DNA of 64,000 nucleotides from Candidatus Dadabacteria bacterium (GTDB lineage: Bacteria; Desulfobacterota_D; UBA1144; Nemesobacterales; Nemesobacteraceae): positions 19,797-83,796 of the forward strand of contig JAPPFE010000020.1 in the NCBI GenBank assembly GCA_028823955.1, read 5' to 3'. The position numbers and the translations under genes are program-made. Positions 776-24,080 of the stretch are shown here, piece after piece; within the stretch, counting starts at the first letter, position 1, and each line of letters opens with the position of its first letter. The notes beneath the pieces are model-generated. The model did not search any database. It saw only the letters and a list, made by a program, of their open reading frames with translations, and had not been told where the DNA came from.

Positions 776-2083
776 TTATTCCTTGTCAATCTGCGCGGGT
801 TCGCCCTCTACTTCCTCAATCTGGGCCCGCTCCAAGAGAAGATCCAAAACCCCTCGGGTTTTGATCTGGGATTCCAGATGCTCCATAGTCCCCGGCTGTT
901 CATAAGCCTTGTGCACCTGATCGGGGGGAAGATTATATGAAGCGGCCAGGCGGTCTATGTGCTCGTTTAACTGCTTACGGGTAACTCTCACGTTCTCCTT
1001 CTGAGCGATGCGGCCGAGAATTATAGATGTCCTGACACTCTCGGCGGCCTTCTCGGTGAATTTTGGAGCCACGTCCTCCCCGATCTCGGGCTCCGTGACT
1101 CCGCCTCTCTGCATGTCGGAGAGGAATCTCGCTTTAAGGCTCTCCTCTTCCTTTTCAAGCAGCGACGGAGGAACGTCGAACTGGTTTTTCGAGAGAAGGT
1201 CGTCGACTATCTGTTCCCTCATGGATGAGAGCTGTTCGTCTTCATGAAGGTGCTCAAGCTGCTCTTTTATGGCCTCTTTTAGCTCAGAGATACCCTCGAC
1301 GTCAAAATCCTTAGCGAAATCATCGTCCGCCTCGGGCAGAATCCTGTCGTGAATCTCATTTATCTTGACGGTGAAACTGACGGTTTTCCCGGCGGCCTCG
1401 GGTATTAGGAAATCTTCCGGGTAGGAAACCGAGAATTGAGCTTCCTCGCCCGCTTTCTTCCCAAGCAAGTTCTCTTCGAACTCGGGGGCAAACTGTTCTT
1501 CGCCCAGCAAAAACCTTACATTCTGCCTGTTAAGATCGTCTATGGTCTCCCCGTCTTCAAACTTGCCGCTGTAGTCGACAAAAAGGTAATCGCCCTCCTT
1601 GGCAGAACGGTCTTCCTCGATAAGCCTTGACTGCGCAGACCTTTCCCTGAGTTTCTGCACCTCGGCGTCTATATCCTCCTCGGTCACCTGGCGGACGGTT
1701 TTCTTAACCGGAATTGAGCTGTAGTCAGAAAGCTCAAAATCAGGAACAACCTCGAATTCAGCCGAATAGGCGAAGTCCTCTCCAGTCTTTACCTCACCCA
1801 TCTCCGTGATGTCGGGGCGTGTCACTGGCAAAAGCGAGCGCTGCGCAAGGGCTTCGGACAAGGTTTCCGAAACAAGGTTAGATGCGGTTTCCTGATCGAC
1901 CTCCTTTCCGTACATTGACTCGACCACGTGACGGGGGACCTTTCCCTTCCTAAATCCCTTGACGCTTACTCCCCCCATAACGTCACGGAACACGGAATTT
2001 CTTTTTTCCGCAACCTGATCTGAGGAAAGAGAAACCCTTATCTTTTTTCTGGTGCTGTCGATATCCTCAACATCTATCTTCAT
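776..2083 (-). CDS. tig: Trigger factor (ribosome-associated chaperone / PPIase)
   Basis: 435 aa; N-terminal [19 protein letters not shown] ribosome-binding-domain pattern and position immediately upstream of clpP. Confidence 0.9.
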
Positions 2084-2239
2084 TTTGTCTAAAACCCCTC
2101 AGCAAAGAATTCAGGTAACAATATATCATTATTCGAAAAATTCTAGTATGCTCCGTAACTCAAAGTGAATTTTTAAATCCGAAGTTAAAAACCGAACGTC
2201 ACACCTTTTGCACGTCATGTCTTGAACGTCGCTCGCAGC

Positions 2240-4174
2240 TTACGAATGTTTTTCCCGGTATACGTAATTTCGTGCAAACAAACAAAAGGCAAGAAGAAGA
2301 AGGACAGCTTGGGGGATCGCGGTCTCATAAGAAGGATATATCCCAAGGGTATCCATGTAAGGAATGAAATCCGCCGTAGTTGAAGAAATAATTCCCGCCT
2401 CCTGGAGTTCAAGTATTCCCTTGCCGAGAAGTATGAAACAGAGCAGGTAGAGGAAAACGCTCGTGAAGGAAAAGAAGTATTTAAGAGGAATCCTGAGGGT
2501 AAACCTGTACATAAGAAAAGCTATTACGAACACAACCGCCACCCCCGCAATAAGTCCATAGATCACGTGTGGCATGGAGGAACCTGTCTGGAAGAAAAGT
2601 GCCTGGTAAAAAAGCATTGTCTCGAAAGCTTCCCTGTAGACAGCAAGGAACGAGACGAAAGCAAGAGTAAGGCCGCTTCTTCGGGTAAGCGCGCCTTGGG
2701 TTTTGGAGCGGACGTATTCCTTCCATTTTTTTACGTCCGCCTTTGAGATAAGCCAGTAACTTACGTAAAAAAGAATCACTGCTGCCAGAAGAGAAGTCAC
2801 TCCTTCCACAATCTCCCTCCTAGCCCCCGAGATATCTATTATGGTTCTTGCCGCAACCCACGTCGCCAGTCCTGCAAAGAGGGCAAGCACCCACCCGTAG
2901 TGAACGTACCTGATCATCCCGCGGTTACCTGAATGCGCTAAAGCGGCGATAATGGCCGCGATTATCAGCAGAGCTTCAAGCGCTTCTCTGAGTATTATGG
3001 CAAAAGAATTGACAAAACTCAGGTATTTGCCGAGCGATGAGCCGCCTTGCAGGATGCGCTCCGACTCGCGAAGATCCTCCTCTATGCTAGCTTTCAGATC
3101 ATGAAGCTCGGAGGAATCCCGGTCGGACATCACTAATGACCTGAAAAATCCCATTTTTTTTTCAACCTCAAGAACAAGCGGTCTTTTTTTCGATACCAGG
3201 GCAGGTTCGATTCTCTGAAACCCTCCCAAGTACCCGTCGAGAGCCTCCTTGAAAGCCTCGTCCTTTCTGCCGGCCTCGTAAAGATCGATGGCCTCTTCAA
3301 GCTTCCTCAGGGTATGGGCTATAGCTTCGGATGCACCTCCAGCAATTCCATCCCGAAGATAAGCGGTTCTCAGGTAAAAAAGAACTTCCTCGTCACTGCC
3401 CCCGGCTCCGGCATTAAGAAGAATCTCCGCATTGCTGGCCAGGGCAAGATTTTCAAGCTTTTTTACATCATGGGGAATATTCTCCGTGGAAAGTCCAGAA
3501 GCACCTCCGCCTGAGGGAATATCTGGATACCCGAGCGAGAGAACGTAAAACGCCACATCCCATTTCTGTTTTTCGTCAAGCACCTTTTCGAACGAGGTCA
3601 TGGCGGTACCTTCGATCCCGAAAGTGGTGGTGTTGTAAACTTTAAAAGGTGAGAGCCCGAGATTTATATCAGGGTCTGTGAAATCCGTGGGAGGAGGATT
3701 GAGGGTCTTAGAGAAAGCATCGTCCGGCCTTCCTGAGAGCCCATGACAGGAGGAACAGTTCCTCACGTAAAGCTCTTTTCCGCTTTCGTAATCGGGTATA
3801 TTCGCCGGATAGGGTTTGATGTCATAGACTGAAATGATCCGCCCCTTCAGTTCACCTGCAAGGCTTTCCACTTCTGAGACGGGCCCCTTGGATACTATAA
3901 TTGAGTGCAGACGTGCGAATTTTTCGGAAAAATCAGCTGTTCCTTCTCTCTTCTCACCCGTTTTTTCCCACAGACCAGCCGCTACGGAAGAAAAGTCCAG
4001 CATCTCCTGATACTCAAATTCGTTTATGATCTTCCCTTCTTTTACGGCATTTGCGTAGTCTCCTCCTATGTAATCGACAAGAGAGAGGATCCTGTCTATC
4101 TCTGCGGCATAAGAGAGCGCGGGAAAAAGAAAAAATATGAGAACTGACAAATAGAAGAAACTTTTTTTAAGCAT
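2240..4174 (-). CDS. Fusion protein: periplasmic c-type cytochrome domain + FTR1/EfeU-family high-affinity iron permease
   Basis: Signal peptide MLKKSFFYLSVLIFFLFPALSYA. Single CXXCH heme-binding motif (NCSSCHG) with a downstream GTAMTSF Met-ligand region. C-terminal 7-TM domain carries two REXXE motifs (REALE, REAFE) typical of FTR1 permeases. The alternative upstream ATG at 4195 would give 651 aa. Confidence 0.75.
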   Translation of the reverse strand: MLKKSFFYLSVLIFFLFPALSYAAEIDRILSLVDYIGGDYANAVKEGKIINEFEYQEMLDFSSVAAGLWEKTGEKREGTADFSEKFARLHSIIVSKGPVSEVESLAGELKGRIISVYDIKPYPANIPDYESGKELYVRNCSSCHGLSGRPDDAFSKTLNPPPTDFTDPDINLGLSPFKVYNTTTFGIEGTAMTSFEKVLDEKQKWDVAFYVLSLGYPDIPSGGGASGLSTENIPHDVKKLENLALASNAEILLNAGAGGSDEEVLFYLRTAYLRDGIAGGASEAIAHTLRKLEEAIDLYEAGRKDEAFKEALDGYLGGFQRIEPALVSKKRPLVLEVEKKMGFFRSLVMSDRDSSELHDLKASIEEDLRESERILQGGSSLGKYLSFVNSFAIILREALEALLIIAAIIAALAHSGNRGMIRYVHYGWVLALFAGLATWVAARTIIDISGARREIVEGVTSLLAAVILFYVSYWLISKADVKKWKEYVRSKTQGALTRRSGLTLAFVSFLAVYREAFETMLFYQALFFQTGSSMPHVIYGLIAGVAVVFVIAFLMYRFTLRIPLKYFFSFTSVFLYLLCFILLGKGILELQEAGIISSTTADFIPYMDTLGIYPSYETAIPQAVLLLLAFCLFARNYVYREKHS

Positions 4175-9259: not shown

Positions 9260-11926
9260 CTACCTGTTCTCAGTGGAATCTCCTTCGGGTTTCAGGATGG
9301 AAACCGCAGCTGTCTCAGGATTTATGTACTTCCTAGCCACCCTAGCTACGTCATCAGCCGTAACAGAAAGGATCTTCTCCGGGAACTTTCTGTATTCGTA
9401 AGTACCTATTCCGTAAAGTTCGTCAAATCCGACCGTGGACGCTTGGGCGGAGTTCCTCTGAAGCCCTATCTCGAAGCTGCCGACTATGTAGTTCTTCGCC
9501 CTCTCAAGCTCATGTTCCCCGATACCCTCCAAGGCAAGCTGGAGCTGTTCCTTTATCGCTCCGAGCGCCTCTTTTTCCTTCTGCGGAGCAGTTCCTATAT
9601 AGACGCCGAAATAGCCACCTTCCATCCCAGGAACGTAGAACGAGGTAACGGCATAGGCGAGGCTTTTCTTGTCCCGAAGCTCAATGAAGAGCCTTCCCCC
9701 CTGACCTGAGAGCACCGAATTCAGCACCTCGAACGCATAGCGGTCGCGACTTTTAAACCCCGGGGCGTGAAAACCCGCGATGATGTGGGTCTGGGCCTTG
9801 TCTCTCTCAAACTCGACGATTTCCCTCGCAGCAGAAAGCGCAGATTCGCGGGGCGGCCGGATCTTTTCGAAGACGCCCTGCTTCATGCTACCAAACAGTT
9901 TTTCAAGAAGGGCAGGGGTTTTCTCCGCATCAATATCACCCGCAACGGAAATAACCATGTTCTCGGGCCTTATGACTTTTTTGTAAAACTCCCGGACATC
10001 GGCTGAGGTAAATCCGTCTACGTTTTCCTCGGTTCCCAGAACGTTGAACCTGTAGGGGTGCTTGAGGAAAAGGGTCCTGAGAAAATTCCTGACCGCCTTT
10101 CCCGTGAGGTTATCCTTCTGTTTTTCCAAAGCGGCCAGGATTTCCCTTCTCTCTCTCTCCATTTCCTCATCGGAAAAAGAAGGATCAAGTATCACGTCTG
10201 AGAAAATATCCATTGCCCCTTCAAAGTTCTCACTTAAGGCTGAGAGAGTCACCCCAACGCTGTTTTTCCCAGAAAAGCCGTCGACCGTTCCCCCCAGCCC
10301 TTCTATCTGAGTGGCTATATCTTCTGCGGAGCGGCTCGAGGTACCACGGGTGAACATCCCGGACATGAAGTTCGAAATTCCGTTTGTGTTTTCGTCCTCA
10401 TATCCGAGACCGCCCAGGAAAGCCGCGTGAACGGAGAAAAGTGGAACGGCAGGGTTACGTTTCAAAAGAACCCGGATTCCGTTTGAAAGCTCGTATTTCT
10501 TAAATTCCGCCTGCGTTGAGGAAGCTTTTTTCTTTTCTTTTTCCTGAGTCGCTCCAGGAAAAACAAGGGCTTTCCTGAAGCCCTTCTCAACCCCCTTGGT
10601 TTTGTCTTTAGGAAGCAGCACTCCCGCGGTGAGGTTTTTCTGCTTGAAGTATTCTCTGGCCACCCGCAATATGTCTTCTGGGGTAACATTCCTCACCCTC
10701 TCAAGGTAGAGGCGTTCGTAGCCGTAATCTCCCGTTTCAAGCTCGAAGTAACCAAGCTTTCTCGCCTGTCCCTGCATGGTCTCCTTGGCGCGGATGAAGT
10801 CCCTCTCTATGTTAGTTTTGGCGCGGGCAAGCTCCTCGGCCCCGACGGGTTCGTTTTTTATAAGCTCTATCTCTGCCACTATCTCCTTTGAGGCTTTTTC
10901 CACTTTACCGGGATCAAAAACTCCGCCCACGAGGAAAAGACCGTTTTCCTTGAGGCTGTAGGCGTAGGCGTATATGTCGTTTACGGTGGCGTTTTGCTCC
11001 TTTAGTTTTCTGTAGAGCCTGGAGCTTTCCCCGGTACCGAGTATGCCGCTTATAACGTCAAGAACGGGAGTGTCAGCGTGGCTCGCCGAGGGGGTATGAA
11101 AGGCAAAGCTGAAGTAGCCCGTGTTTACGTCGCGGCCGATAACGAAAGTTCTTGTGCGTTTCTGCTCGGGTTCCGGGGGAAGTTTGCACTCAGGAGTTTT
11201 TCTTTTCTTTATTTTTCCGAAAGTCCGGGCAACCGCGTCCTTTATTCCCTCAGGATCAAAATCCCCGACCACAACAAGAATCATGTTGTCCGGAGAATAC
11301 CACTTTCTGTAGAAATCCAGTATTCCGTCTCTGGTGAAGCTCCCCACGCTCTGCTTGGTTCCTATTATGGGCCTTCCGTAGGGATGAACGCTGTAGGCCG
11401 TGGAGAAAAGCTTCTGGCTGATTACCCTTGAGGGAGAATCCTCTCCCCTTCTTATCTCTTCCTGGACAACTTCAAGCTCTTTCTCAAGCTCCGCGGGGTC
11501 AAAAGTCGAGTTCTCCATGACGTCTGAGAGCACATCGAGAGCCATAGGCAGAAAGCGCCGCGCGCTTACGATGTAGTAAACCGTCTCATCAAAGGAGGTA
11601 AACGCATTTATGTCTCCGCCTCCCGCCTCGACCATCCCGGCTATCTCGCCGACCCGTCTTCCTTCTGTCCCCTTGAAAAGCATGTGTTCGTGCACATGCG
11701 CGAGGCCGTACTCGCCCTCCACCTCGCATGCGCTTCCGGTCTTCACCCACACGTTAACGGCGACAACCGGAGAAGAATCGTTTCTCTCAAGAAGCACGGT
11801 CATGCCGTTAGAAAGACTATATTTCGTTACTCCTTCGACAACCGCAAAGGTCTGGGCATTTAAACTCATAAGACTTGCTCCCGTAATCAGAATGAATAAA
11901 AAAAGTAATTTGAAAACCCCTTTCAT
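9260..11926 (-). CDS. Secreted M16-family zinc metallopeptidase (insulinase/pitrilysin-like, duplicated M16 halves)
   Basis: 888 aa with signal peptide. Inverted zinc motif HVHEHMLFKGT (HXXEH) and downstream glutamates. A second inactive-type M16 half in the C-terminal 450 aa. Confidence 0.85.
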   Translation of the reverse strand: MKGVFKLLFLFILITGASLMSLNAQTFAVVEGVTKYSLSNGMTVLLERNDSSPVVAVNVWVKTGSACEVEGEYGLAHVHEHMLFKGTEGRRVGEIAGMVEAGGGDINAFTSFDETVYYIVSARRFLPMALDVLSDVMENSTFDPAELEKELEVVQEEIRRGEDSPSRVISQKLFSTAYSVHPYGRPIIGTKQSVGSFTRDGILDFYRKWYSPDNMILVVVGDFDPEGIKDAVARTFGKIKKRKTPECKLPPEPEQKRTRTFVIGRDVNTGYFSFAFHTPSASHADTPVLDVISGILGTGESSRLYRKLKEQNATVNDIYAYAYSLKENGLFLVGGVFDPGKVEKASKEIVAEIELIKNEPVGAEELARAKTNIERDFIRAKETMQGQARKLGYFELETGDYGYERLYLERVRNVTPEDILRVAREYFKQKNLTAGVLLPKDKTKGVEKGFRKALVFPGATQEKEKKKASSTQAEFKKYELSNGIRVLLKRNPAVPLFSVHAAFLGGLGYEDENTNGISNFMSGMFTRGTSSRSAEDIATQIEGLGGTVDGFSGKNSVGVTLSALSENFEGAMDIFSDVILDPSFSDEEMERERREILAALEKQKDNLTGKAVRNFLRTLFLKHPYRFNVLGTEENVDGFTSADVREFYKKVIRPENMVISVAGDIDAEKTPALLEKLFGSMKQGVFEKIRPPRESALSAAREIVEFERDKAQTHIIAGFHAPGFKSRDRYAFEVLNSVLSGQGGRLFIELRDKKSLAYAVTSFYVPGMEGGYFGVYIGTAPQKEKEALGAIKEQLQLALEGIGEHELERAKNYIVGSFEIGLQRNSAQASTVGFDELYGIGTYEYRKFPEKILSVTADDVARVARKYINPETAAVSILKPEGDSTENR

Positions 11927-11953
11927 CGACTCCAGCCTCCAGAGGGAAAACCC

Positions 11954-12787
11954 CTAGGACTCGTCGCTGGCCAAGGCTTCTGACTCTTTGTCCCGCGATG
12001 TAGCCTTCGCGGCCAGCTTCCAGGCACAACGTCCGAGCTCGAGGATAAAATAGCAGTAAGTTATAAGGACCGCGATCACTCCGGGATTGGTAATAAGCGC
12101 CGCAATTATTATGGAGCCCGCAACAAGAGTGCTGAAAGGTCCAAATCTGGCAATTCGCGGGAACTTTCTGTATGGAACCTCGCTAACCATAACAAGTCCC
12201 ACAACAGGAACGAAGAAAAGATAAAAAGATTTCATAAGTGGGGTAGCAACGATCTGAAACTCAGAGAGAAGGAGTATCGGAGAGAGAATAAGTCCCGCAG
12301 CCATAGGACTCGGAAGACCCGTGAACATGCGCTTTTCCTTGGTTGTAAACTGCACGTTAAAACGCGCAAGCCTAAGTGCTGCGCAGACCACGTAGAAAAG
12401 CATCGCCATCAGTCCCGGATTTCCATATTCCGAAAGCCCCCAAACGTAAAGAAGCACTGCCGGGGCGACCCCGAACGATACAAGATCGCAGAGCGAATCA
12501 TAGGACGCGCCAAAGCGGCTCTCCGAGTTAAGAGCTCTTGCTATTCTGCCGTCAAGCATGTCGACAAGTACCGCCATGCCGATAAATCCCGCTGCCCACC
12601 AGAAGCGATTAAAAAGCCATTCCTCAGAAACTACGGCTGAGGCACGGTCCCCGTGGATGGAAATCGAAGTCACTATGGACGCAAGCCCGAACGCAAGGCC
12701 CACGGTCGTGAGCATGCTCGGTAGCAGGGGGATAACCCTCCCCGGACGGGGATGTCTTCTCCTTCTTTTTTTTCTCAAGTTAGCCAC
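11954..12787 (-). CDS. pssA: CDP-diacylglycerol--serine O-phosphatidyltransferase (CDP-alcohol phosphatidyltransferase family)
   Basis: CDP-OH phosphotransferase motif region AVLVDMLDGRIARALNSESRFGASYDSLCDLVSFGVAPAVL. Operon partner of psd. Confidence 0.8.
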   Translation of the reverse strand: MANLRKKRRRRHPRPGRVIPLLPSMLTTVGLAFGLASIVTSISIHGDRASAVVSEEWLFNRFWWAAGFIGMAVLVDMLDGRIARALNSESRFGASYDSLCDLVSFGVAPAVLLYVWGLSEYGNPGLMAMLFYVVCAALRLARFNVQFTTKEKRMFTGLPSPMAAGLILSPILLLSEFQIVATPLMKSFYLFFVPVVGLVMVSEVPYRKFPRIARFGPFSTLVAGSIIIAALITNPGVIAVLITYCYFILELGRCAWKLAAKATSRDKESEALASDES

Positions 12788-13425
12788 GCTATAACCGTCC
12801 TGCCGCCCACGACTTTCTGCCCCACCTCAACTCCCACCTTCACATCCTCGGGCAGGTAAACATCCACCCTTGAACCAAACTTTATAATCCCGAATTTTTC
12901 CCCGATTTCCAATACGTCGCCGAATTTCGCACGCGATACGATTCTTCTCGCGAGAAAACCAGCCACCTGGACTATAACCACCTGGACTTCCCCCTCGCAC
13001 TCAATCAGGGTGACAAGCCGCTCGTTGGCCTCGGATGAATCACCCTTAAAAGCCATTTTGAATTCCCCGGGGTAATAAGTGGTTCCGACTACCTTACCCG
13101 AAACGGGAAATCTGTTTATATGGCAGTCGAAGATAGAGAGAAAAATGCTTATTCTTCGGGCGTTCCGCTTAAGATAATCGTCTTCAAGCGTCTCCGAAAT
13201 ATCTATTATTTTCCCGTCCGCGGGACAGATCACGGAACCGGGTTCAAGTGTAGGAAGTTCCCTTTCAGGATCCCTGAAGAAAAAGACGAAAAAAGCGGTG
13301 AGCAGAAGAAATACTAAAAATAAAGAGAGAGAACCCAGAAGCGCGAAGAGAATACATAGCGCGGCTGAAACGTAAATTATACTGAGCCCATCGCTTGCGA
13401 CCCTCACAAATCGGAAATCCATCAA
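12775..13425 (-). CDS. psd: Phosphatidylserine decarboxylase proenzyme (short archaeal-type Psd family)
   Basis: 216 aa. N-terminal TM helix then a PSD fold with the cleavage-site region [10 protein letters not shown] (the GS[T/R] motif). Start overlaps the ilvC stop (ATGA). Confidence 0.8.
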
Positions 13426-14435
13426 TTCTTGTCTTTATCGACCAGTTTCTTCTGGAAAAGCGAGCTCATCATTCCCCTAAGCTCGGCGCCGACTTTTTCG
13501 ATCGGATGCTCTTCACCCTGCCTGAGAAGCGCGTTATAGGAAGGCCTTCCAGCCTGATTCTCAAGTATCCATTCCGAGGCGAACTGTCCGGACTGAATCT
13601 CCCCGATTATTTTTTTCATCTCCTGTTTTACGGAGTCGTCTATAAGCCTCGGGCCCCTAGTTATGTCTCCGTACTTGGCCGTATCGCTCACCGAGTAACG
13701 CATGTTAGCTATCCCGCCCTCGTATATGAGGTCAACTATAAGCTTGACTTCGTGGCAGCACTCGAAATAAGCCATCTCGGGCGGATAACCGGCTTCAACA
13801 AGCGTCTCGTATCCTGCCAAGATAAGGGCCGTGAGCCCTCCGCACAGAACTGACTGCTCCCCGAAAAGATCGGTTTCCGTCTCGTCCTTGAAAGTCGTCT
13901 CTATAACTCCCGCCCTTGAACATCCGATGGCTCTGGCGTAAGCAAGAGCAAGATCTTTAGCGTCGCCCGTCGAGTTCTGGTGAACAGCTATGAGTCCCGG
14001 CACACCAGCACCCCCAACATACTGGTCCCTTACCGTGTGCCCCGGGGCCTTGGGAGCGACCATGAACACGTCCACGCCCGCAGGCGGTCTGATCTGTCCG
14101 TAGTGAATATTAAAACCGTGACTGAACATAAGCGCGTTTCCGGCAACCAAGTTCTTTTCGACATGCTCATGGTATATCGCCGGCTGGTAAGTGTCTGGAG
14201 CCAGCATAACCACTATGTCCGCGGATTTGGAAGCGGCGGAAACCGACTTCACGTTAAAACCAGCTTCCTTGGCCTTTTTCCAGTTGGGACTGTCCTTAAT
14301 ATCTGCGACCGTGACCGAGACTCCGCTCTCTCTTAGATTCTGGGCATGGGCGTGACCCTGGCTTCCGTAGCCTATGATCGCAATCTTCTTCTTAAGCTTA
14401 GACGGGTCAATATCCTCATCGTAGTAAACTTTCAC
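13422..14435 (-). CDS. ilvC: Ketol-acid reductoisomerase (NADP+)
   Basis: 337 aa; [38 protein letters not shown] Rossmann N-terminus characteristic of class I KARI. Confidence 0.95.
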
Positions 14436-14450
14436 CGGTTATATCCTCCT

Positions 14451-14945
14451 TTACTTGCTCTTCTTATTCGCCCGGGACATGGCGACGGTTCCCGTTCTCG
14501 CGATTTCCTTTATCCCGAAGGGTCGTTGAAGTTCAACAAACGCCTGAATCTTCTGTTCATCCCCGGTAACCTCGAACGTGTAGGATCTTGGAGACACATC
14601 GACGACCTTGGCCCGGAATATGTCGGCAATCCGCAGAATTTCCGGCTTGGAATCGACCTTCGCATCGACCTTGATGAGAATCATCTCTCTTTCCACGCGG
14701 TCAAGTTCGGTCATGTCAACAACCTTGATCACATTGACCATGTTGTTGAACCTTTTTATTATCTGCTGAATTATGGCTTCGTCGCCGGTTGTGACCAGAG
14801 TTATTCTGGACGTCCCCGGTTCCTGAGTTTCCGCGACATTAAGACTCTCTATGTTAAAATCCCTGGCGCTGAAAAGCCCCGCGATTCTTGAGAGTACTCC
14901 GGCTTCATTATCTACCGTTATTGATATCGTGTGTCTCGATTTCAT
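14451..14945 (-). CDS. ilvH: Acetolactate synthase small (regulatory) subunit
   Basis: 164 aa; ACT-domain N-terminus HTISITVDNEAGVLSRIAGLFSARDFNIESL. Confidence 0.9.
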   Translation of the reverse strand: MKSRHTISITVDNEAGVLSRIAGLFSARDFNIESLNVAETQEPGTSRITLVTTGDEAIIQQIIKRFNNMVNVIKVVDMTELDRVEREMILIKVDAKVDSKPEILRIADIFRAKVVDVSPRSYTFEVTGDEQKIQAFVELQRPFGIKEIARTGTVAMSRANKKSK

Positions 14946-15039
14946 GGAACCTCCAAAGTGGTGAAAAATTGTCAGGAAAACGCAATTATACCGAATCCCC
15001 GAGAAATGTTAATACCCACCAGCCAACCACCAAATCTCC

Positions 15040-15360
15040 TCAGCCCCCGGCGTCTTCCTTAAGAATTTCCCCCAGCTCCCCATTTACATGCATGTCGGTA
15101 CATATATCGCATCCGCCTATGAAATTGCCGTTAACGTAGAGCTGCGGAAGGGTTGGCCACTGCGAGTAGTCCTTTATCCCTTGGCGGATCTTCGGATCCA
15201 AAAGAACATCGACGGTCTCGTAATCCACCCCGTAGTAGTTGAGAATGTTCACCACCTGCGCCGAAAAACCACACTGCGGCATCTCTTTTGACCCCTTCAT
15301 GTAAAGGATAATAGGGTTCTCTTCGATCTGACGCCCTATTTTTTTCTGTATATCCGACAT
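15040..15360 (-). CDS. grxD: Monothiol glutaredoxin (Grx4/GrxD family)
   Basis: 106 aa with the CGFS active site (KGSKEMPQCGFSAQ). Confidence 0.9.
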   Translation of the reverse strand: MSDIQKKIGRQIEENPIILYMKGSKEMPQCGFSAQVVNILNYYGVDYETVDVLLDPKIRQGIKDYSQWPTLPQLYVNGNFIGGCDICTDMHVNGELGEILKEDAGG

Positions 15361-15371
15361 TGCCTCGCTCC

Positions 15372-15614
15372 TTACTTTTTAAGTTTCTCCCACTGATCGT
15401 CCGTGTAGGTTTTTATAGAGATGGCATGAATTTCGGATTCCATAGCGTCTCCAAGCGCCGCGTAAACAAGCTTGTGACGTTCAATAGACGGCTTGCCCCT
15501 GAACTGTTCGGATACGACGACTGCCTGAAAATGCGTTCCGTCCCCTTCAACCTCGACAAACGACGTTGAAATGCCCTGCTCTATCATCTCACGGATCCGC
15601 TGCGTTTCCATCAC
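15372..15614 (-). CDS. bolA: BolA family protein
   Basis: 80 aa. BolA-like motif FRGKPSIERHKLVYAAL. Conserved pairing with a monothiol glutaredoxin. Confidence 0.8.
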   Translation of the reverse strand: MMETQRIREMIEQGISTSFVEVEGDGTHFQAVVVSEQFRGKPSIERHKLVYAALGDAMESEIHAISIKTYTDDQWEKLKK

Positions 15615-15738
15615 AGCGGGGAATTATATACGCATATCAGTGCGTTTCCAAGAAAGGAGATCCAGAGCAAGCTGCCTTGCAAAAATCCCCGGCTGTCTTA
15701 TCCTTAATCTGTCCGGAAAAAGAGGTTCTAATACACAG

Positions 15739-16182
15739 ATGAAAGTAAAAGAGATAATGAACAGCCCAGTGGTCACCGCCAAGGAGAATGACTCGCTTGA
15801 GCAGTGCGCGCGCAAGATGCTTGAACTCAAAATTGCCCAACTTCCGGTGGTTAACAATGACGGAGTCCTCACAGGATTCGTAGCCGCAAGCGACTTTATC
15901 GCTAAAAAAACCACCGTCTCCTTCTCGAGAACCGAAATCCTCGAACTCTTCGGACAGTGGTTTGACCAGGGAGAAATTGAGAAGATATATGAGGATGCCG
16001 GGCGTATCATGGTGAAGGAAGTAATGAGCAGCCCTGTCATATCCGTCGGCCCGGACGCATCTGTAAAAGAGGTATTCGAAGAATTAGCCGGAACTGGAAT
16101 CCACAGCGTTGTCGTGGTCGAGGAGGAAAAACCCGTGGGGCTTGTCTCGGTATCCGATTTTCTGAAACTGATAGTAAGATAA
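15739..16182 (+). CDS. CBS-domain pair protein
   Basis: Two CBS repeats (IMNSPVVTAKENDSLEQCARKM..., VMSSPVISVGPDASVKEVFE...). Start set to ATG 15739, which has an upstream AGAGGT RBS. The longer ORF-track start at 15571 overlaps bolA. Confidence 0.75.
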   Translation: MKVKEIMNSPVVTAKENDSLEQCARKMLELKIAQLPVVNNDGVLTGFVAASDFIAKKTTVSFSRTEILELFGQWFDQGEIEKIYEDAGRIMVKEVMSSPVISVGPDASVKEVFEELAGTGIHSVVVVEEEKPVGLVSVSDFLKLIVR

Positions 16183-16207
16183 TCCGCCTTCGGCCCGCCG
16201 TGCCATC

Positions 16208-16576
16208 ATGAAAAACTTCGGAGTTTCAAAGGAGAAACAAACGGCACTCGAGCGGGAAATGAAGCGTCTTGGCATAAGGGAAGAAGATATCGAGGAAACT
16301 TTCACGAGATCTTCGGGACCCGGCGGACAGAACGTAAATAAGTTGGCCACTTGCGTTCACCTGCGACACCGTCCAAGCGGCATTACCGTGAAGGTTATGA
16401 GAGAGCGTTCCCAGGCGCTTAACAGATTCTTTGCGAGGAGAAGCCTCACCGAAAAAATCGCAACGCAGATCCACGGAGAAGACTCCGCTGAAAGAAAAAA
16501 AGCGCAGAAGATAATAAAACAGAAAAAAAGAAGAAAAAGAAAGACGGCGAAAAAGCTCGCCGGTAATACCCAATGA
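16208..16576 (+). CDS. arfB: Peptidyl-tRNA hydrolase ArfB (YaeJ-type ribosome rescue factor)
   Basis: 122 aa. GGQ motif (SSGPGGQNVNK) in a short RF-like domain, followed by a basic C-terminal tail (KKAQKIIKQKKRRKRKTAKK). Confidence 0.75.
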   Translation: MKNFGVSKEKQTALEREMKRLGIREEDIEETFTRSSGPGGQNVNKLATCVHLRHRPSGITVKVMRERSQALNRFFARRSLTEKIATQIHGEDSAERKKAQKIIKQKKRRKRKTAKKLAGNTQ

Positions 16577-16601
16577 TAAACCGCCAGTTGTCGAGTGGGC
16601 A

Positions 16602-17144
16602 ATGAAAAATACCCCTGATTCAAAGTGCAATGCCGGATTGCTCTGTCAATCATTGTGCTTAACGCTTCTTCTGCTGCTTTGCCCGGCGTCAGCAGAAGCC
16701 GAGACCCTGACCGGCAAGCCTTATGTAACAGACGGCGATACGGTCAAAGTTTCGGGGGAACGGATCAGACTCGAAGGAATTGACGCACCGGAAAGAAACC
16801 AGCGCTGCAAAGATGCCTCCGGAAAAAGCTATGACTGCGGCATTGTTTCAACCGCAGCTCTTAGAAACAAAATAGGGCGCAATTCCATTACGTGCGAGGG
16901 AACAAAGCGTGACCGCTACGGACGCTTTCTCGGGATCTGCTACTTAAACGAGATTGACTTAAACGGCTGGATGGTCCAAAACGGCTACGCTCTCGCTTAC
17001 AGGCGCTACTCGCGCCGTTACGTCTCTGCAGAGCAGGAGGCCCAGGAAAACAGCCGCGGTTTGTGGGCCGGGGAATTCGTCGTGCCTTGGAACTGGCGAA
17101 AAGGGGAACGGCTTACGAACAGTTCCCCACATCCCGGCAAGTAA
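16602..17144 (+). CDS. Secreted staphylococcal-nuclease-like (thermonuclease / SNase) protein
   Basis: Signal peptide. SNase-like blocks GDTVKVSGERIRLEGIDAPE, RDRYGRFLG and GLWAG. Confidence 0.8.
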   Translation: MKNTPDSKCNAGLLCQSLCLTLLLLLCPASAEAETLTGKPYVTDGDTVKVSGERIRLEGIDAPERNQRCKDASGKSYDCGIVSTAALRNKIGRNSITCEGTKRDRYGRFLGICYLNEIDLNGWMVQNGYALAYRRYSRRYVSAEQEAQENSRGLWAGEFVVPWNWRKGERLTNSSPHPGK

Positions 17145-17207
17145 GTCGGCAGCAAAATGTTGAAAAATCAGGAGTTCATGTCAATCCTAGCTGCATGGAA
17201 AACGAAC
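16985..17207. repeat. Direct repeat copy A (about 225 bp; nuclease 3' end + intergenic + start codon of downstream gene)
   Basis: Aligns by eye with 18612..18842. The core from GAAAACAGCCGCGG to CTGCATGGAAAA is about 96% identical (about 6 mismatches in 165 bp). The 5' part is conserved only at protein level. Confidence 0.8.
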
Positions 17208-17446
17208 ATCGATACAGGGTTGAGGCAAAGCTATTTGTCAGTCCGATACGGGTAGAGGGATTTGACCGGGCGGCACACTGTAACACTTGCCGGGGGGATC
17301 TCGGCACGGACGGCGTGGAACGGCAATCTCTCCAAAACCACCGTTTCTTGGCGGAACTTGACGAGACGGGGAAAGTTATCTCCGAGTGCTGCGAACTGTG
17401 CGCAATTGAGGTTTTTGACGATTTAGACGGCTTCTGTCACGAATAA
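17195..17446 (+). CDS. Small Cys-rich hypothetical protein (83 aa)
   Basis: ATG at 17195 lies inside repeat copy A and is the same MENE start used by the YeiH-family gene in copy B. Contains HCNTC and ECCELC...FCHE cysteine clusters. Coding status uncertain. Confidence 0.4.
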   Translation: MENEHRYRVEAKLFVSPIRVEGFDRAAHCNTCRGDLGTDGVERQSLQNHRFLAELDETGKVISECCELCAIEVFDDLDGFCHE

Positions 17447-17455
17447 GGAGGTGAT

Positions 17456-17848
17456 ATGAACATGAAAAAGATAATAATTACTGGAATCATCTTGTTTTCC
17501 GCAGTTTTTTCTTCCGTTTCTGCTTCTGCTGGTTCAAAAATAATTAAGGCAACAGATTACGGGGACAAGTGGCCTTTAACCGTTTCTAAAGCAACCTTGT
17601 CATGCCACGGGCCCGGCGCTGTTTACATCAGGGCCAATCCAGTACCCTTGCGCCCGCAGCAATACTACCCCGTGAACGGCCTAGCCAGCTCACAAGTATG
17701 GATTGACCGATACATTGGTAGAGGTAAAAAACTTAGTAACCTTGAAAATATTTGGGCATTTGACGAAAAAGAAATGGCAAAATGGGGTTATGAGGTCCGT
17801 ATCAGTATCGGTCCATTGATAGAGGACGGATTGGAACTCTGCAAATAA
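17456..17848 (+). CDS. Secreted hypothetical protein (130 aa)
   Basis: Clear signal peptide (MNMKKIIITGIILFSAVFSSVSASA) with an RBS (AAGGAGGTG) 6 nt upstream. Noticeably AT-richer than the flanking DNA. Confidence 0.5.
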   Translation: MNMKKIIITGIILFSAVFSSVSASAGSKIIKATDYGDKWPLTVSKATLSCHGPGAVYIRANPVPLRPQQYYPVNGLASSQVWIDRYIGRGKKLSNLENIWAFDEKEMAKWGYEVRISIGPLIEDGLELCK

Positions 17849-17983
17849 GAATCTCCCCTGGTGCTTGCGCCCGAGGACGAGGACGAGATTGCCGACGTGC
17901 TCCGGAGACTCCTCGATAAGGATCTGAGCGGCCCTTAGACATATCGAATATGTTAGACTGGTTGGTACTGGAGGCATAAGATC

Positions 17984-18361
17984 ATGAAGATTGAGATACT
18001 AGCCGGGGACTGGAAGTTTGCCGCTGTCAATAATGGGGTGCTACAGATGGTAGACTCAGAGGGGAAAGTGGTGAGGTTTACGAAAATAGCAAGCTTGGAA
18101 GTTGCAACAGAGGAAACCAAGCGAGAATGGAAACAGAAGGTAGGCTGGGGAGTTGGTGTCGGCTTAGTGACATTCGGAGTTGGAGGACTTGTCACGGCAC
18201 TAGCGGTTGGCAATAAAAAATTTGTGGAGTTCTTTTGCGAACTCCCCGACGGCAAAGGGGAGTTTATGGGAAAAACAGAGCAGAAAGGGTACCGAGAGCT
18301 GGTGAAACTTTGCCCCGAAGCTGCAGAAGCTGTCAAAAAGAAGCCGATTTGGGAAGAATAA
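17984..18361 (+). CDS. Hypothetical protein with one central TM/Gly-rich segment (125 aa)
   Basis: ORF in the AT-rich islet between the repeats. No recognised motif. Confidence 0.4.
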   Translation: MKIEILAGDWKFAAVNNGVLQMVDSEGKVVRFTKIASLEVATEETKREWKQKVGWGVGVGLVTFGVGGLVTALAVGNKKFVEFFCELPDGKGEFMGKTEQKGYRELVKLCPEAAEAVKKKPIWEE

Positions 18362-18611
18362 AAGAAGCAAGAGCCTTACACTAGCTGCTCGGTCAAACCG
18401 TCATCTTCTTAAAGCTTGTTACAAACCCATCTCACGCGGCCGAGGATTATCTCTTCCTTTCTGGTAAAGGGAGTAATGAAAGACAATGGCAAAAAAGAAT
18501 CAAGGTAGCAATAAATCTCCCCAAGTTAAGAATGGGAACTTATATACATAACTAGACAAACATAAGTAGTAATGTTGGTAATAAGCTTTGTTGAAGTTAT
18601 CAGACCGGTAT

Positions 18612-18782
18612 TACTGTAAAAGTTATGCGCTCGCTTACAAGCACTATTCGAAACGCTACGTTGCCCCAGAGAAAAATGTTCGCGAAAACAGCCGCGGTGT
18701 GTGGGCCGGGGAATTCGTCGTGCCTTGGAGCTGGCGAAAAGGGGAACGGCTTACGAACAGTTCTCTACATCCCGGCAAGTAA
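18612..18782 (+). pseudogene. Remnant 3' fragment of an SNase-like nuclease gene (paralogous to 16602..17144)
   Basis: Encodes ...YALAYKHYSKRYVAPEKNVRENSRGVWAGEFVVPWSWRKGERLTNSSLHPGK, homologous to the C-terminal 52 aa of the intact nuclease. It has no N-terminal catalytic part. Confidence 0.55.
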
Positions 18783-18842
18783 GTCGGCAGCAAAATGTTG
18801 AAAAATCAGGAGTTCATGTCAATCTTACCTGCATGGAAAATG
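18612..18842. repeat. Direct repeat copy B
   Basis: See copy A. Followed by the YeiH-family transporter instead of the small Cys-rich gene. Confidence 0.8.
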
Positions 18843-20113
18843 AAGCAGCAGACTCCCCCGAGGAAAACCACGGACTCTCTGAAGACTGGGTGGTTTTCGG
18901 ACCGGCTTTCATCCTTATAGCCCTCGGGCTTCTTTTTCCCTATCTTTCTCTTCCCAAGTTTTCGTGGGCCCCGGATTCTCTGGGCGAGGTCTTAAGCGCA
19001 AAGAACATCTCTCTTTCCCTTTCGCTGGGAGTGGTCTTTTTGTTTTTTTCAAGCTTTGGAATCCGTATGATGGGCGGGTCGGTTACCCGCTACGTCGTGG
19101 GCTTTCCCCTAGTCTTCGCACTTGCGTGGGCGTCCAAGTTTCTCGCCGGAAACGCAATGGCCAAGGAATGGGGCGTAAGCTATGTCATCTTTGCTCTTTT
19201 AATCGGAATGTTCGTTGGCAATGTTTTCCCCGATCGCTTCCGAGAGGCGGTCCGCACCGAGTACTACATCAAGATTGGGCTTATAATTCTGGGTTCCGGA
19301 ATCCTGTTCGGCAAGATACTCTCCGCGGGGTCGGCGGGAATTCTGCAAGCCCTGTTCGTTGTGCTCGTCATCTGGTACGCATGCTACTGGATCTGCAGGA
19401 GGCTTGCCGTGGATTCCGAGTTTGCCGCCATGCTCTCCACGGCCGTTTCCATCTGCGGAGTCTCTGCCGCCATTGCGGCCTGCGGAGCCATAGGCGGAGA
19501 CAGAAAGAAGCTCTCCTACGTAACTTCTCTCGTTCTCATAGTGGCCGTCCCCATGATGCTCATCATGCCTTGGGCTGTAGAGCATTTCCAAATTCCTGCG
19601 GTGATCGGAGGAGCATGGATCGGAGGAACCATTGACACCACAGGAGCCGTGGTAGCCGCGGGGGAACTGGTGGGAGAATCGGCGATGAACGCTGCCGTGG
19701 TGGTGAAGTTTTCGCAGAACGCCATGCTGGGTCTAGCAGCTTTCGCCCTTTCTCTTTGGTGGACATTTCGCCAGAGAGCGGATGAAGGGGTAAAGCCGTC
19801 GATCGGGGTCATCTGGGAGCGCTTCCCAAAGTTCATTCTGGGTTTCATGGCGGCATCTCTTCTTTTTTCCTTCGCAGTTGGGGACGATCTTGTTTCGCAG
19901 ACCAAGGGGCTCATGAAAGGGCTTCGCGGCTGGTGGTTCGCCCTTGCATTTGTCTGTATAGGCCTTGAGACCCGTTTTTCCACCCTGGTCAGCATGGAGG
20001 AAGGCCGTCCCGCCTATGCGTTTCTCATAGCGCAGGGAATGAACATCATCTGGACACTGATTATAGCCTGGATTCTTTTCGGCGGATTGTTATTCCCCGC
20101 CCCTGTTCTATAA
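18833..20113 (+). CDS. YeiH/UPF0324-family membrane protein (putative sulfate-exporter-family transporter)
   Basis: About 10 TM helices and Gly-rich re-entrant-like segments (GGAWIGGTIDTTGAVVAAG). Start taken at the MENE ATG inside repeat copy B. The ORF-track start at 18701 lies in the nuclease-remnant frame. Confidence 0.65.
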   Translation: MENEAADSPEENHGLSEDWVVFGPAFILIALGLLFPYLSLPKFSWAPDSLGEVLSAKNISLSLSLGVVFLFFSSFGIRMMGGSVTRYVVGFPLVFALAWASKFLAGNAMAKEWGVSYVIFALLIGMFVGNVFPDRFREAVRTEYYIKIGLIILGSGILFGKILSAGSAGILQALFVVLVIWYACYWICRRLAVDSEFAAMLSTAVSICGVSAAIAACGAIGGDRKKLSYVTSLVLIVAVPMMLIMPWAVEHFQIPAVIGGAWIGGTIDTTGAVVAAGELVGESAMNAAVVVKFSQNAMLGLAAFALSLWWTFRQRADEGVKPSIGVIWERFPKFILGFMAASLLFSFAVGDDLVSQTKGLMKGLRGWWFALAFVCIGLETRFSTLVSMEEGRPAYAFLIAQGMNIIWTLIIAWILFGGLLFPAPVL

Positions 20114-20248
20114 AAGTCTTTGATCGTGTCACAGGTCCCTAGAAGGTTCGCAACTTATTAGGTTATCGACAGTATAGCTCCCGTTATTGCCAAACCCGCA
20201 AAGCCAAGTACTTTAATTGCAGCAAATATTCCAAAGGAGTTCGTAACA

Positions 20249-21244
20249 ATGAAAGCGATTATCTATCACGAATTCGGAGAAACTGACGTTCTTAAATACG
20301 AAGAGGTAAGTAAGCCGGAACTTGGACCGGGAGAAGTCCTTGTAGAGGTAAAATCCTCCTCCATAAACTTCGTCGACCTGAGGCTCAGAAGCGGGAAATC
20401 ACCCCGTCCAGTGCCCCTGCCGCACGTGGGGGGAGTAGACGTGGCGGGCATTGTATGCGAGAAAAGCGAGGACGTGTCCGACGTGGAAACGGGTGATCGG
20501 GTCATGGTCATGCCGGCCGTGCGCTCGGAAAGGGGCCTTGAGATAGTCGGGGTCAACCTCCACGGAGGATTCGCCGAATATGTAAAAATACCTTCATCTA
20601 ACGTGGTACCGATTCCCGAAGGGCTCTCCTTTGACGACGCAGCAACCCTTCCAACCTGCTATGTCACCGCCTGGTACGGCTTCTGCGAAAGAGGGAATAT
20701 CGCCGAGGGAGAAACAGTGCTTGTGCACGCGGCGGGAAGCGGAACGGGAAGCGCGGCGATCCAGGTAGCCAAGCTCTTCGATTCCTTCGTGATAGCTACC
20801 GCGGGAAGCGACGAAAAACTTGAGAAGGCAAAAAAAATCGGAGCCGACGTCACCATAAACTATAACTCCTCGGACCTCGGAGAGGAGCTAAAGAAAATTA
20901 CAAAAACGCATAAGATAAACATGATCTTCGATCCCGTGGGAGCTTCGGTGTGGAAAGAGAACACGCAGTATCTGGCCCCCGGGGGAAAACTTCTGCTGAT
21001 CGGAGTTGCTGGAGGTGGCGCCACGGAAGCAGCCCTCGGCCCGCTTATTATGAAAGATCTCTCCGTACTGGGAGTAACGGTGTTTAACGCCCGGGCGGAA
21101 CACTTCGAGAAAGTCGCGCAGCTTGCTGAGGAAGGTGCCCTAAAACCTTCGATACACAGCAGGTTTCACCTGAGTGAAGCGGCTGCGGCGCAGAAAATTC
21201 TTGAAGATCGCCAGCAGTTCGGAAAAGTCATCCTGAACCCATAA
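20249..21244 (+). CDS. Zinc-type alcohol dehydrogenase / NADPH:quinone oxidoreductase (MDR superfamily)
   Basis: 331 aa. GroES-like N-domain, Rossmann AAGSGTGSAAIQVAK and the quinone-oxidoreductase C-terminus. Confidence 0.85.
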   Translation: MKAIIYHEFGETDVLKYEEVSKPELGPGEVLVEVKSSSINFVDLRLRSGKSPRPVPLPHVGGVDVAGIVCEKSEDVSDVETGDRVMVMPAVRSERGLEIVGVNLHGGFAEYVKIPSSNVVPIPEGLSFDDAATLPTCYVTAWYGFCERGNIAEGETVLVHAAGSGTGSAAIQVAKLFDSFVIATAGSDEKLEKAKKIGADVTINYNSSDLGEELKKITKTHKINMIFDPVGASVWKENTQYLAPGGKLLLIGVAGGGATEAALGPLIMKDLSVLGVTVFNARAEHFEKVAQLAEEGALKPSIHSRFHLSEAAAAQKILEDRQQFGKVILNP

Positions 21245-21264
21245 GGAAAAGCCTGATTTTCAAG

Positions 21265-22119
21265 GTGAGCATCAAAAATCTGTTCGCGGCGTTTCTGTTC
21301 GCCCTCTTCGCCGCGCCAGTTGTGTGCCTAGCAAAACCGCCCTGCCCAAAAAGCATAATATCGCTCACTTTGGCTTCAGATGAAATCCTAGTCGATATAA
21401 TCGGCGACAGAAAGAAAATAACTGCGCTTACCTATTTCTCGACCGACCCGCTGATCTCAAACGTCGTGGAAAAAGCGCGGGGAATTCCCCAGGTCCAAGC
21501 AAACCTCGAGCAGGTAATTGCAAAATCTCCGGATCTCGTGATAGTCGCGGGTCACACCAACCCGAACATACGCGCGCATCTTGAGGCAGCGGGAATAAAA
21601 GTACTGGTGCTCCACGAAATCGTCTCTCTTGAGAGCATAAAAAAGAATATAGAACTGGTTGGAGAGGCTGTCTGCGAGGAAGCCGCGGCGAAAAGCCTCG
21701 TAAAAAAAATGGAAGCCCAGATCGCGGATGCCAGGGCAAAGATTCCGCCTCACGCAAAAGCCCCGACGGTTCTTTTCTACGGAGCTCCAGGGTTCACGGT
21801 CGGCAACCGCTCAACCATAAACGATATAATAGAAAGTTCCGGAGCCATAAACCTCCCGGCACGCCTCGGGCTAAGCGGATACAGCAACATATCTACCGAA
21901 TACGTAATCCAGAACAATCCTGACCTAGTGCTTACAAGTAGTTATAATCCATCTCACCCGGATTTTGTGGACCAGATGTTCAAAAATTCCGCCTTCAGAG
22001 ACAAAAAGATCATAGTCGTCGCGGGAAAACATCTAGACGCCGCGTCTCATTATGCGGCACGGGCCGTAATTGATCTGGTGAACCTGATATTCAGAGCAGA
22101 AAACAATGCCGACCGGTAA
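21265..22119 (+). CDS. ABC transporter periplasmic substrate-binding protein, class III (iron-siderophore/cobalamin, BtuF/FecB-like)
   Basis: GTG start and signal peptide. TroA-like two-lobe pattern, in an operon with a FecCD permease and ATPase. Confidence 0.75.
   Translation: MSIKNLFAAFLFALFAAPVVCLAKPPCPKSIISLTLASDEILVDIIGDRKKITALTYFSTDPLISNVVEKARGIPQVQANLEQVIAKSPDLVIVAGHTNPNIRAHLEAAGIKVLVLHEIVSLESIKKNIELVGEAVCEEAAAKSLVKKMEAQIADARAKIPPHAKAPTVLFYGAPGFTVGNRSTINDIIESSGAINLPARLGLSGYSNISTEYVIQNNPDLVLTSSYNPSHPDFVDQMFKNSAFRDKKIIVVAGKHLDAASHYAARAVIDLVNLIFRAENNADR

Positions 22120-24006: not shown

Positions 24007-24080
<74 letters not shown>

Follow-up and report, generated by a model that had tools for sequence, protein, structure and literature searches.

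In a 64,000-nucleotide stretch of the metagenome-assembled genome (MAG) of a Candidatus Dadabacteria bacterium (contig JAPPFE010000020.1; the whole stretch is referred to below as the window, and positions are counted from its first letter), a small islet of unrelated sequences is located between a gene for a secreted nuclease of the SNase family and a gene for a membrane protein of the YeiH family. The islet is bracketed by a 221-nucleotide (nt) direct repeat containing the end of the nuclease gene and the beginning of the YeiH gene. Comparison with related loci shows that the ancestral and common state is a nuclease gene followed directly by the YeiH gene, and that the islet is an insertion polymorphism. 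It is considered rather probable, with moderate confidence, that the host's own recombination placed this strain-specific accessory islet between the two genes, without the action of a dedicated integrase or of transposition at the site. The best reading of the structure is a recombinational displacement which left an orphaned nuclease 3′ end, rather than an element flanked by attachment (att) sites or a pair of tandem paralogues.

The two genes and the two copies of the repeat are represented by the following features.

16602–17144, forward strand: intact gene of the secreted SNase-family nuclease, 180 amino acids (aa) (Pfam PF00565 SNase, E = 3e-17).
16986–17206, forward strand: copy A of the repeat, comprising the nuclease 3′ end with the stop codon at 17142–17144, the 50-nt leader and ATGGAAAACGAA (repeat search, alignment).
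18624–18682, forward strand: left part of copy B, 59 nt of a nuclease gene of another, L169/L171-like Dadabacteria clade, in register with the resident gene (diagnostic sites).
18683–18844, forward strand: core of copy B, the orphaned resident nuclease 3′ end (100 nt), the leader and the first 12 nt of YeiH (three-way alignment with L161, profile of single-nucleotide polymorphisms, SNPs).
18833–20113, forward strand: intact gene of the YeiH-family (Cons_hypoth698) membrane protein, 426 aa (Pfam PF03601, E = 6e-45).

The direct repeat was delimited by repeat search and ungapped alignment at an offset of 1638, in which 16986–17206 and 18624–18844 are identical at 193 of 221 positions (87%), while the top identity among 3000 random 221-nt pairs from the window was 35%. 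An earlier note on this DNA had described a repeat of 225 bp; the repeat is real, but its measured length is 221 nt, without gaps, and its identity lies above the 80% below which the note would have doubted it. The core identity of about 96% given there agrees with the 95% measured (154/162 at 17045–17206), while in the left part, 16986–17044, 39 of 59 positions match (66%). Within the repeat, a stretch of 58 nt is identical between copies A and B. Each copy consists of the last 159 nt of the nuclease open reading frame (ORF), the 50-nt leader and ATG GAA AAY GAA, and the insert between them comprises 1417 nt (17207–18623). Copy A belongs to the intact nuclease gene and reads on into a Cys-rich ORF of 83 codons (17195–17446), and copy B has AT-rich DNA on its 5′ side and runs on its 3′ side into the YeiH gene, upstream of which the ORF list contains a nuclease reading frame truncated at the 5′ end (18588–18782). 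Both fusions had been reported before and are present as described; the leader and the start codon indeed occur twice, and both flanking genes are intact. Orthologues of the nuclease are present in many Dadabacteria contigs, and the YeiH protein also matches TIGR00698, but below the cut-off of that model.

Related loci were gathered by a YeiH scan of a genome collection, which gave three close relatives, and from contigs with nuclease orthologues; a scan of metagenome contigs with YeiH gave no close relative, the top match being 66%. The empty site, in which the nuclease gene is followed directly by YeiH and the repeated segment is present in one copy, was found in eleven related loci of six lineages, including L002, L003, L161–L163, L168, L169–L170 and L171. 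Thus, the islet is an insertion relative to the nuclease–YeiH arrangement, as the earlier note had supposed. The loci L161–L163 are near-clonal relatives from other samples, and against these the divergence of the window changes sharply at the islet.

10602–16909, window against L162: 6 mismatches, about 0.1% divergence.
16910–17206, window against L162: 18 mismatches, about 6% divergence (Poisson P about 1e-26).
18683–20478, window against L162: about 5–7 mismatches, about 0.3% divergence.
16910–17206, forward strand: recombination tract, which abuts the islet and reaches 76 nt past the left edge of the repeat (SNP profile against L161–L163).

The single core of the empty-site strains equals copy B from the equivalent of position 17043 onward, and 8 core sites differ from copy A. 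Because of this identity to the empty-site allele, the core of copy B is the resident sequence, while copy A is a different allele, about 6% diverged, which extends 76 nt beyond the repeat. The diverged tract under copy A suggests that the islet arrived by homologous recombination.

Against the near-clonal empty-site strains, a second recombination tract, which begins at 20479 and runs to about 24000, shows a divergence of about 4.5%, compared with 0.1–0.3% around it. It spans the genes for ADH, Peripla_BP_2, FecCD and ABC_tran and ends just before the tRNA-Met gene (24007–24080). Accordingly, imports from a population diverged by roughly 5% are common here.

The opposite direction of change, in which the islet was ancestral to the near-clonal group and was lost by the empty-site strains, so that the configuration is now being purged, is quite unlikely. 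In its favour, loss requires no more than gain does, namely, one recombination event with the crossovers at the same positions; the islet is carried by a single strain, and its content, which resembles debris, points to age. However, simple deletion between the repeats is excluded as the source of the empty-site allele: in 16910–17043, 9 sites distinguish this allele from copy A, and copy B could supply no template there; the core of the allele equals copy B throughout. In addition, all six other sampled lineages with the nuclease followed by YeiH are without the islet, and that copy B is identical to the empty-site allele is what a gain would naturally produce.

The left part of copy B has another origin. 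The segment 18624–18682 is identical to L169 at 46 of 59 positions and to resident-type alleles at 39–40 of 59, and its identity to winA, L002, L003 and the divergent L001 nuclease is 59–66%. Of 10 clade-diagnostic sites in it, seven show the L169/L171 state and two the resident one. The following segment, 18683–18782, and the leader are identical to the empty-site allele. The switch from the scrap to the resident sequence is in register and falls within CGCGAAAAC, a string common to the foreign and resident nuclease alleles, which is compatible with homeologous or microhomology joining. On these alignments, the repeat is a mosaic built from three lineages and most likely a scar left by recombination with other strains. 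The conservation of the coding part at the protein level only, which had been attributed to an old duplication since decayed, therefore reflects the divergence of a functional gene in another lineage and not the decay of a local duplicate: the part of low identity is the 59-nt scrap of the other clade, fused in register to sequence identical to the empty site.

For the same region, an origin from two tandem nuclease paralogues flanking the cargo, with later truncation of the second and gene conversion making the 3′ ends alike, is hardly credible. An in-frame nuclease C-terminal frame is present in copy B, and the two cores were mutually closest among the alleles first compared. This reading nevertheless fails, because a second nuclease gene, which the earlier note had expected in relatives if the genes were tandem paralogues, was found in none of 13 related loci from eight other lineages. 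The core of copy B, moreover, equals the single copy of the empty-site strain, the left part of copy B comes from another clade, and the spacer is not decayed nuclease. As for this AT-rich spacer to the left of the scrap, its interpretation as a decayed nuclease pseudogene was rejected, with alignment scores no better than those of shuffled controls.

In the most economical account of the displacement, the last event would be the import of linear DNA from a relative about 5–6% diverged, which already carried the islet. The left crossover would have occurred in the nuclease gene, to the left of 16910, and the right crossover where the foreign nuclease scrap could pair with the resident gene, around CGCGAAAAC at 18683. 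The incoming piece would bring the complete nuclease 3′ end together with a leader and a YeiH start codon of its own, so that the resident copy would be displaced downstream and orphaned, giving rise to the direct repeat, and both flanking genes would thereby retain all of their sequence. Two marks of displacement are present in the window, namely, a diverged tract adjoining the islet on one side and an orphaned resident end downstream. The direction of the change (gain), the linear import, the crossover positions and the expression of the islet from the duplicated leader are inferred. The present data do not allow the first building of the islet to be traced, neither the junction after YeiH codon 4 nor the rearranged transposon remnant.

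The islet itself is a patchwork of unrelated scraps and debris, represented by the following features.

17195–17446, forward strand: Cys-rich ORF of 83 codons, which uses the duplicated YeiH start codon (ORF list).
17456–17848, forward strand: gene of a DUF2511/YebY-family secreted protein, 130 aa, with a signal peptide (Pfam PF10709, 36.9 bits, cut-off 21).
17849–17938, forward strand: GC-rich scrap of 90 nt, 62% GC, containing a 29-codon open frame closed by TAG (no relative found).
17984–18361, forward strand: gene of a 125-aa small protein of an uncharacterised family, with a glycine-rich membrane segment (homologue search).
18362–18623, no strand: AT-rich non-coding spacer, 38% GC (nuclease alignments at the level of shuffled controls).
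18532–18561, forward strand: solo terminal inverted repeat of a YebY-carrying IS1595-family transposon, with its outer end (GGGAAC...) facing left (29/30 match to the L173 ends).

For the Cys-rich ORF, no homologue was found among 5.8 billion proteins and no match in Pfam, NCBIfam or PADLOC, and it is not annotated as a gene in the source record. Its reality as a gene is uncertain, and so is a functional fusion to the duplicated start, since it is without homologues. The YebY gene (GC content 43.5%) is preceded by a GGAGGTG ribosome-binding site, and its product covers the PF10709 profile almost entirely. The 125-aa protein, encoded at 48.4% GC, belongs to a family with 106 representatives at E ≤ 1e-3, but has no Pfam domain and no relative in the PDB; L177, the context of its closest homologue, has no DNA in common with the islet. 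Both small genes thus lie below the GC content of the whole window (51.3%), in agreement with the earlier note, but the coding nature which the note had ascribed to the GC-rich fragment could not be demonstrated for 17849–17938. In a search of the islet proteins against NCBIfam and PADLOC (defence systems), nothing was found. The AT-rich spacer contains a possible ORF of 21 codons (MAKKNQGSNKSPQVKNGNLYT, 18487–18552) with GGGAG upstream, which runs into the solo transposon end and is probably fortuitous.

Homologues of YebY (P0122–P0126, contexts L173–L176) are present in mobile contexts, and the closest ones outside this MAG are 44–53% identical. In L175 and L176, a 3.0-kb IS1595-family unit was found in two different genomic contexts; it consists of a 215-aa ORF, an IS1595 transposase with Zn-ribbon and DDE parts, two small ORFs and, last, YebY, and is bounded by terminal inverted repeats of about 29 nt and perfect 8-bp target duplications. 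The same ends and an 8-bp duplication, with a nested IS21-type element, are present in L173, whose DNA is 67–87% identical to the YebY coding sequence of the window, and L174 contains a 520-nt mini element (end, YebY, end) without a clear target duplication. These elements occupy 414–6440 in L173, 2467–5467 in L175, 843–3843 in L176 and 50–569 in L174. Judging by these similarities, YebY and the solo end of the islet descend from such an IS1595-family element. No partner transposon end was found in the 64-kb window at up to 7 errors, and the IS1595 transposase and the target duplication, both present in L173, L175 and L176, are absent from the islet. As the solo end has its outer side turned toward YebY, and the YebY coding sequence is not adjoined by an end, the remnant is rearranged, and the borders of the islet are not transposon ends. 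Accordingly, the window shares with IS1595-family transposons the YebY passenger and an end matching at 29 of 30 positions those of the L173, L175 and L176 elements, but, unlike them, it has only one end, oriented as it would not be in an intact element, and is without a transposase and a target duplication.

The orientation of the solo end bears on another explanation, a Campbell-type single crossover with a small circle carrying the segment of the nuclease 3′ end and leader, either at the first insertion of the islet or at its insertion here, by which the homology would be duplicated on either side of the insert. The topology of the window is as expected for such an event, with the homologous segment repeated in direct orientation on the two sides of the insert and intact neighbours, and, if the islet is read as a circle, the solo end is placed upstream of YebY, in the orientation found in L173–L176. 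There is also a precedent in an Escherichia coli conjugation assay, in which single-crossover insertions duplicating 109–950 bp of the homologous locus were the commonest outcome (PMC3240628). However, the diverged tract extends past the repeat, beginning at 16910, 76 nt outside it, which a circle with homology to 16986–17206 only cannot explain. The repeat is, furthermore, a two-lineage mosaic, so that the circle itself would need to be mosaic, with 59 nt at 66% followed by 162 nt at about 95%, and no such circle or plasmid is present in the collections searched. The insertion of a circle is therefore considered unlikely, although it retains some weight.

Dedicated mobile machinery was not detected at the locus. 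No recombinase or transposase domain was found in the islet proteins (Pfam, NCBIfam, PADLOC), and none in the gene tables, which extend about 5 kb leftward and about 4 kb rightward from the islet and contain housekeeping genes only; the neighbours are ilvC/ilvN-like, glutaredoxin, BolA, CBS, RF-1 domain, ADH and ABC transporter genes. Ten further ORFs of integrase size elsewhere in the window are all housekeeping. No tRNA target is located nearby, the nearest genes being tRNA-Met (24007), about 5.2 kb away, and tRNA-Lys (8202), about 8.8 kb away, and an Rfam scan of 14000–22000 detected no RNA family. The repeat core gave 0 matches in 2.9 million viral contigs, from which the transposon end is likewise absent, and a search of phage and plasmid collections returned no match to the islet DNA in either.

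These results bear on the interpretation of the islet as the remnant of a site-specific integrative element (phage or island), with the integrase lost or acting in trans, the repeats as attL and attR and a surrogate 3′ end brought by the element. In common with integrative elements at gene 3′ ends, the locus has an empty site in relatives, a gene 3′ end partly duplicated at the borders and preserved flanks, and another lineage, L001, has other cargo at nearly the same position. Unlike in such elements, there is no integrase in the islet, in the adjoining gene tables or among the ten further ORFs, and no tRNA or tmRNA target. The piece of foreign gene is located at the wrong, distal junction (the left part of copy B), while a surrogate 3′ end is expected to be gene-proximal, and the distal core is native. 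The identity spans 160 nt and not a short crossover core, and the core is absent from the viral contigs. The cargo of L001, for its part, is without a repeat of the same kind, the nuclease 3′ end there being about 70% similar over about 70 nt. An integrative element is thus very improbable, and the integration proposed in the earlier note is not supported in this sense, being without a recombinase, a tRNA or att-like logic.

Several points weigh against displacement by imported DNA as the origin of the arrangement. The polarity is not proven, and the islet could have been lost from the empty-site strains when these took up an empty allele. The crossover on the right must fall in the first few bases of the core, or the donor core must have equalled the resident one. 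The donor lineage is unsampled, and the A-type nuclease allele is present only in the source scaffold of the window. The solo end is oriented in the wrong way relative to YebY, so that extra rearrangements must be assumed. Among the ORFs of the window that were examined, none is an obvious gene for DNA uptake. Finally, the window comes from a short-read metagenome assembly, in which a switch between co-occurring strains at the 58 nt common to both copies could imitate the mosaic in part.

In its full form, the latter objection amounts to an assembly artefact, in which two co-occurring strains or organisms were joined via the shared 160-nt segment. The 58 identical nt in the repeat of this short-read scaffold exceed typical k-mers, and the independent Logan contig, L164, ends inside both repeats. 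On the other hand, this contig covers both junctions, with the copy-specific SNPs on each side, at 100% identity, yet may derive from the same reads. The same configuration is recorded in two contigs and two NCBI protein accessions, although the independence of these data is not established, and the flanks are about 99.9% and about 99.7% identical to contiguous empty-site contigs of other samples. The chance of such an artefact is considered slight.

With displacement as the preferred explanation, the genes of the islet stand behind a second YeiH leader and start codon and, as far as the arrangement of the genes indicates, are probably co-transcribed with the nuclease operon. Copy A of the leader may drive the Cys-rich ORF and, by way of the neighbouring GGAGGTG site, YebY. 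As regards the single promoter which, according to the earlier note, drives two different genes, a consensus scan of the duplicated core detected no sigma-70-like promoter. The leader contains the motif TTGAAAAAYCNGGAGTTC (17157–17182 and 18795–18820), which is kept at the same position in all related loci and conserved across lineages differing by about 25% in the neighbouring coding DNA; this motif may be a regulatory element. A GGAG in the leader is placed about 21 nt ahead of the ATG, a distance too great for a normal ribosome-binding site. Upstream of its ATG, the YeiH frame remains open over 44 codons or more (17063–17194, 18701–18832), overlapping the nuclease 3′ end, in nine of the nine sequences examined, and the database nuclease entries P0050 and P0051 are frameshifted into this upstream-open frame. 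A start of YeiH inside the nuclease 3′ end was rejected, as the leader is without codon periodicity (10/9/12, compared with 9/6/29 in a coding control); the annotated YeiH ATG therefore stands. The open upstream frame is probably the result of chance plus constraint.

The same locus carries other sequences in several lineages. In L001, whose nuclease and RF-1 genes are 72% identical to those of the window and whose flanks are 83–93% identical, a complete divergent nuclease gene is followed by a MNT/HepT-type toxin–antitoxin pair (PF18765/PF01909 and PF08780). After the pair, an orphan nuclease 3′ end of the resident type starts within about 15 nt of the core boundary of the window and is followed by YeiH, downstream of which a second MNT/HepT copy, 79% identical, is located. 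The CBS gene is missing from this locus (L001, 5938–10270). In L168, the MNT/HepT pair is present only downstream of YeiH. In L165–L167 (4500–5810), YeiH is absent, the C-terminus of the nuclease is rewritten after the equivalent of position 17104, and the nuclease gene is bracketed by direct repeats of about 160 nt with 70–74% identity; two small ORFs replace CBS and RF-1 in these loci. In L168, two small ORFs (67 and 173 aa, no Pfam match) were found at 1881–3439 between the ilvN-like ACT and glutaredoxin genes; they are absent from the window and the other lineages and thus represent another small islet in the neighbourhood.

It is conceivable, but distinctly improbable, that the last approximately 100 nt of the nuclease gene and the YeiH leader form a recurrent capture site in Dadabacteria, a recombinase-free ‘self-healing’ cassette system which preserves both neighbours. 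Units bracketed by diverged direct repeats in three lineages (the window, L001 and L165) and two independent junctions within about 15 nt of each other are consistent with it. If this were true, any cargo bearing a copy of the resident segment would insert via host recombination.

Among known systems, the closest parallels to the window are displacement arrays and flexible islets. In Rhs loci and in the effector–immunity arrays of Vibrio cholerae's type VI secretion system (T6SS), orphaned 3′ regions have been proposed to result from homology-facilitated illegitimate recombination, with one-sided homologous insertion (PMC5361080). The common features are a one-sided homology anchor, a complete replacement gene end with cargo and a resident 3′ end pushed downstream; in the window and in L001 alike, the orphan 3′ end of the resident nuclease lies downstream of the cargo. 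Unlike in the Rhs and T6SS arrays, the gene displaced in the window does not encode a polymorphic toxin, and the logic of an immunity gene is absent. At the far junction, a homeologous scrap is joined in register, which does not look like a random illegitimate joint, and there is one displaced end and no array.

Flexible genomic islets of marine bacteria contain strain-variable cargo between conserved core genes and are exchanged by homologous recombination in the flanks. Similar to these, the islet of the window shows presence and absence among near-clonal strains and is adjoined by diverged tracts, and other variation occurs at or around the site, namely, other cargo in L001 and L168 (MNT/HepT) and the loss of YeiH in L165–L167. 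At 1.4 kb, however, the islet of the window is very small, and a bracketing duplication such as its 221-nt one is not generally seen in flexible islets. The host lineage is apparently sponge-associated, judging by the sample labels.

The locus provides a base-resolved example of a small accessory islet built and passed between strains of an uncultured lineage without dedicated mobile machinery, and it documents an IS1595-family transposon with a DUF2511/YebY passenger. For annotation, it serves as a warning that a repeat at a gene 3′ end can look ‘att-like’ and yet be a scar of recombination. The islet represents an ordinary kind of strain-to-strain difference in gene content, and the current view of bacterial genome dynamics is unchanged by it.

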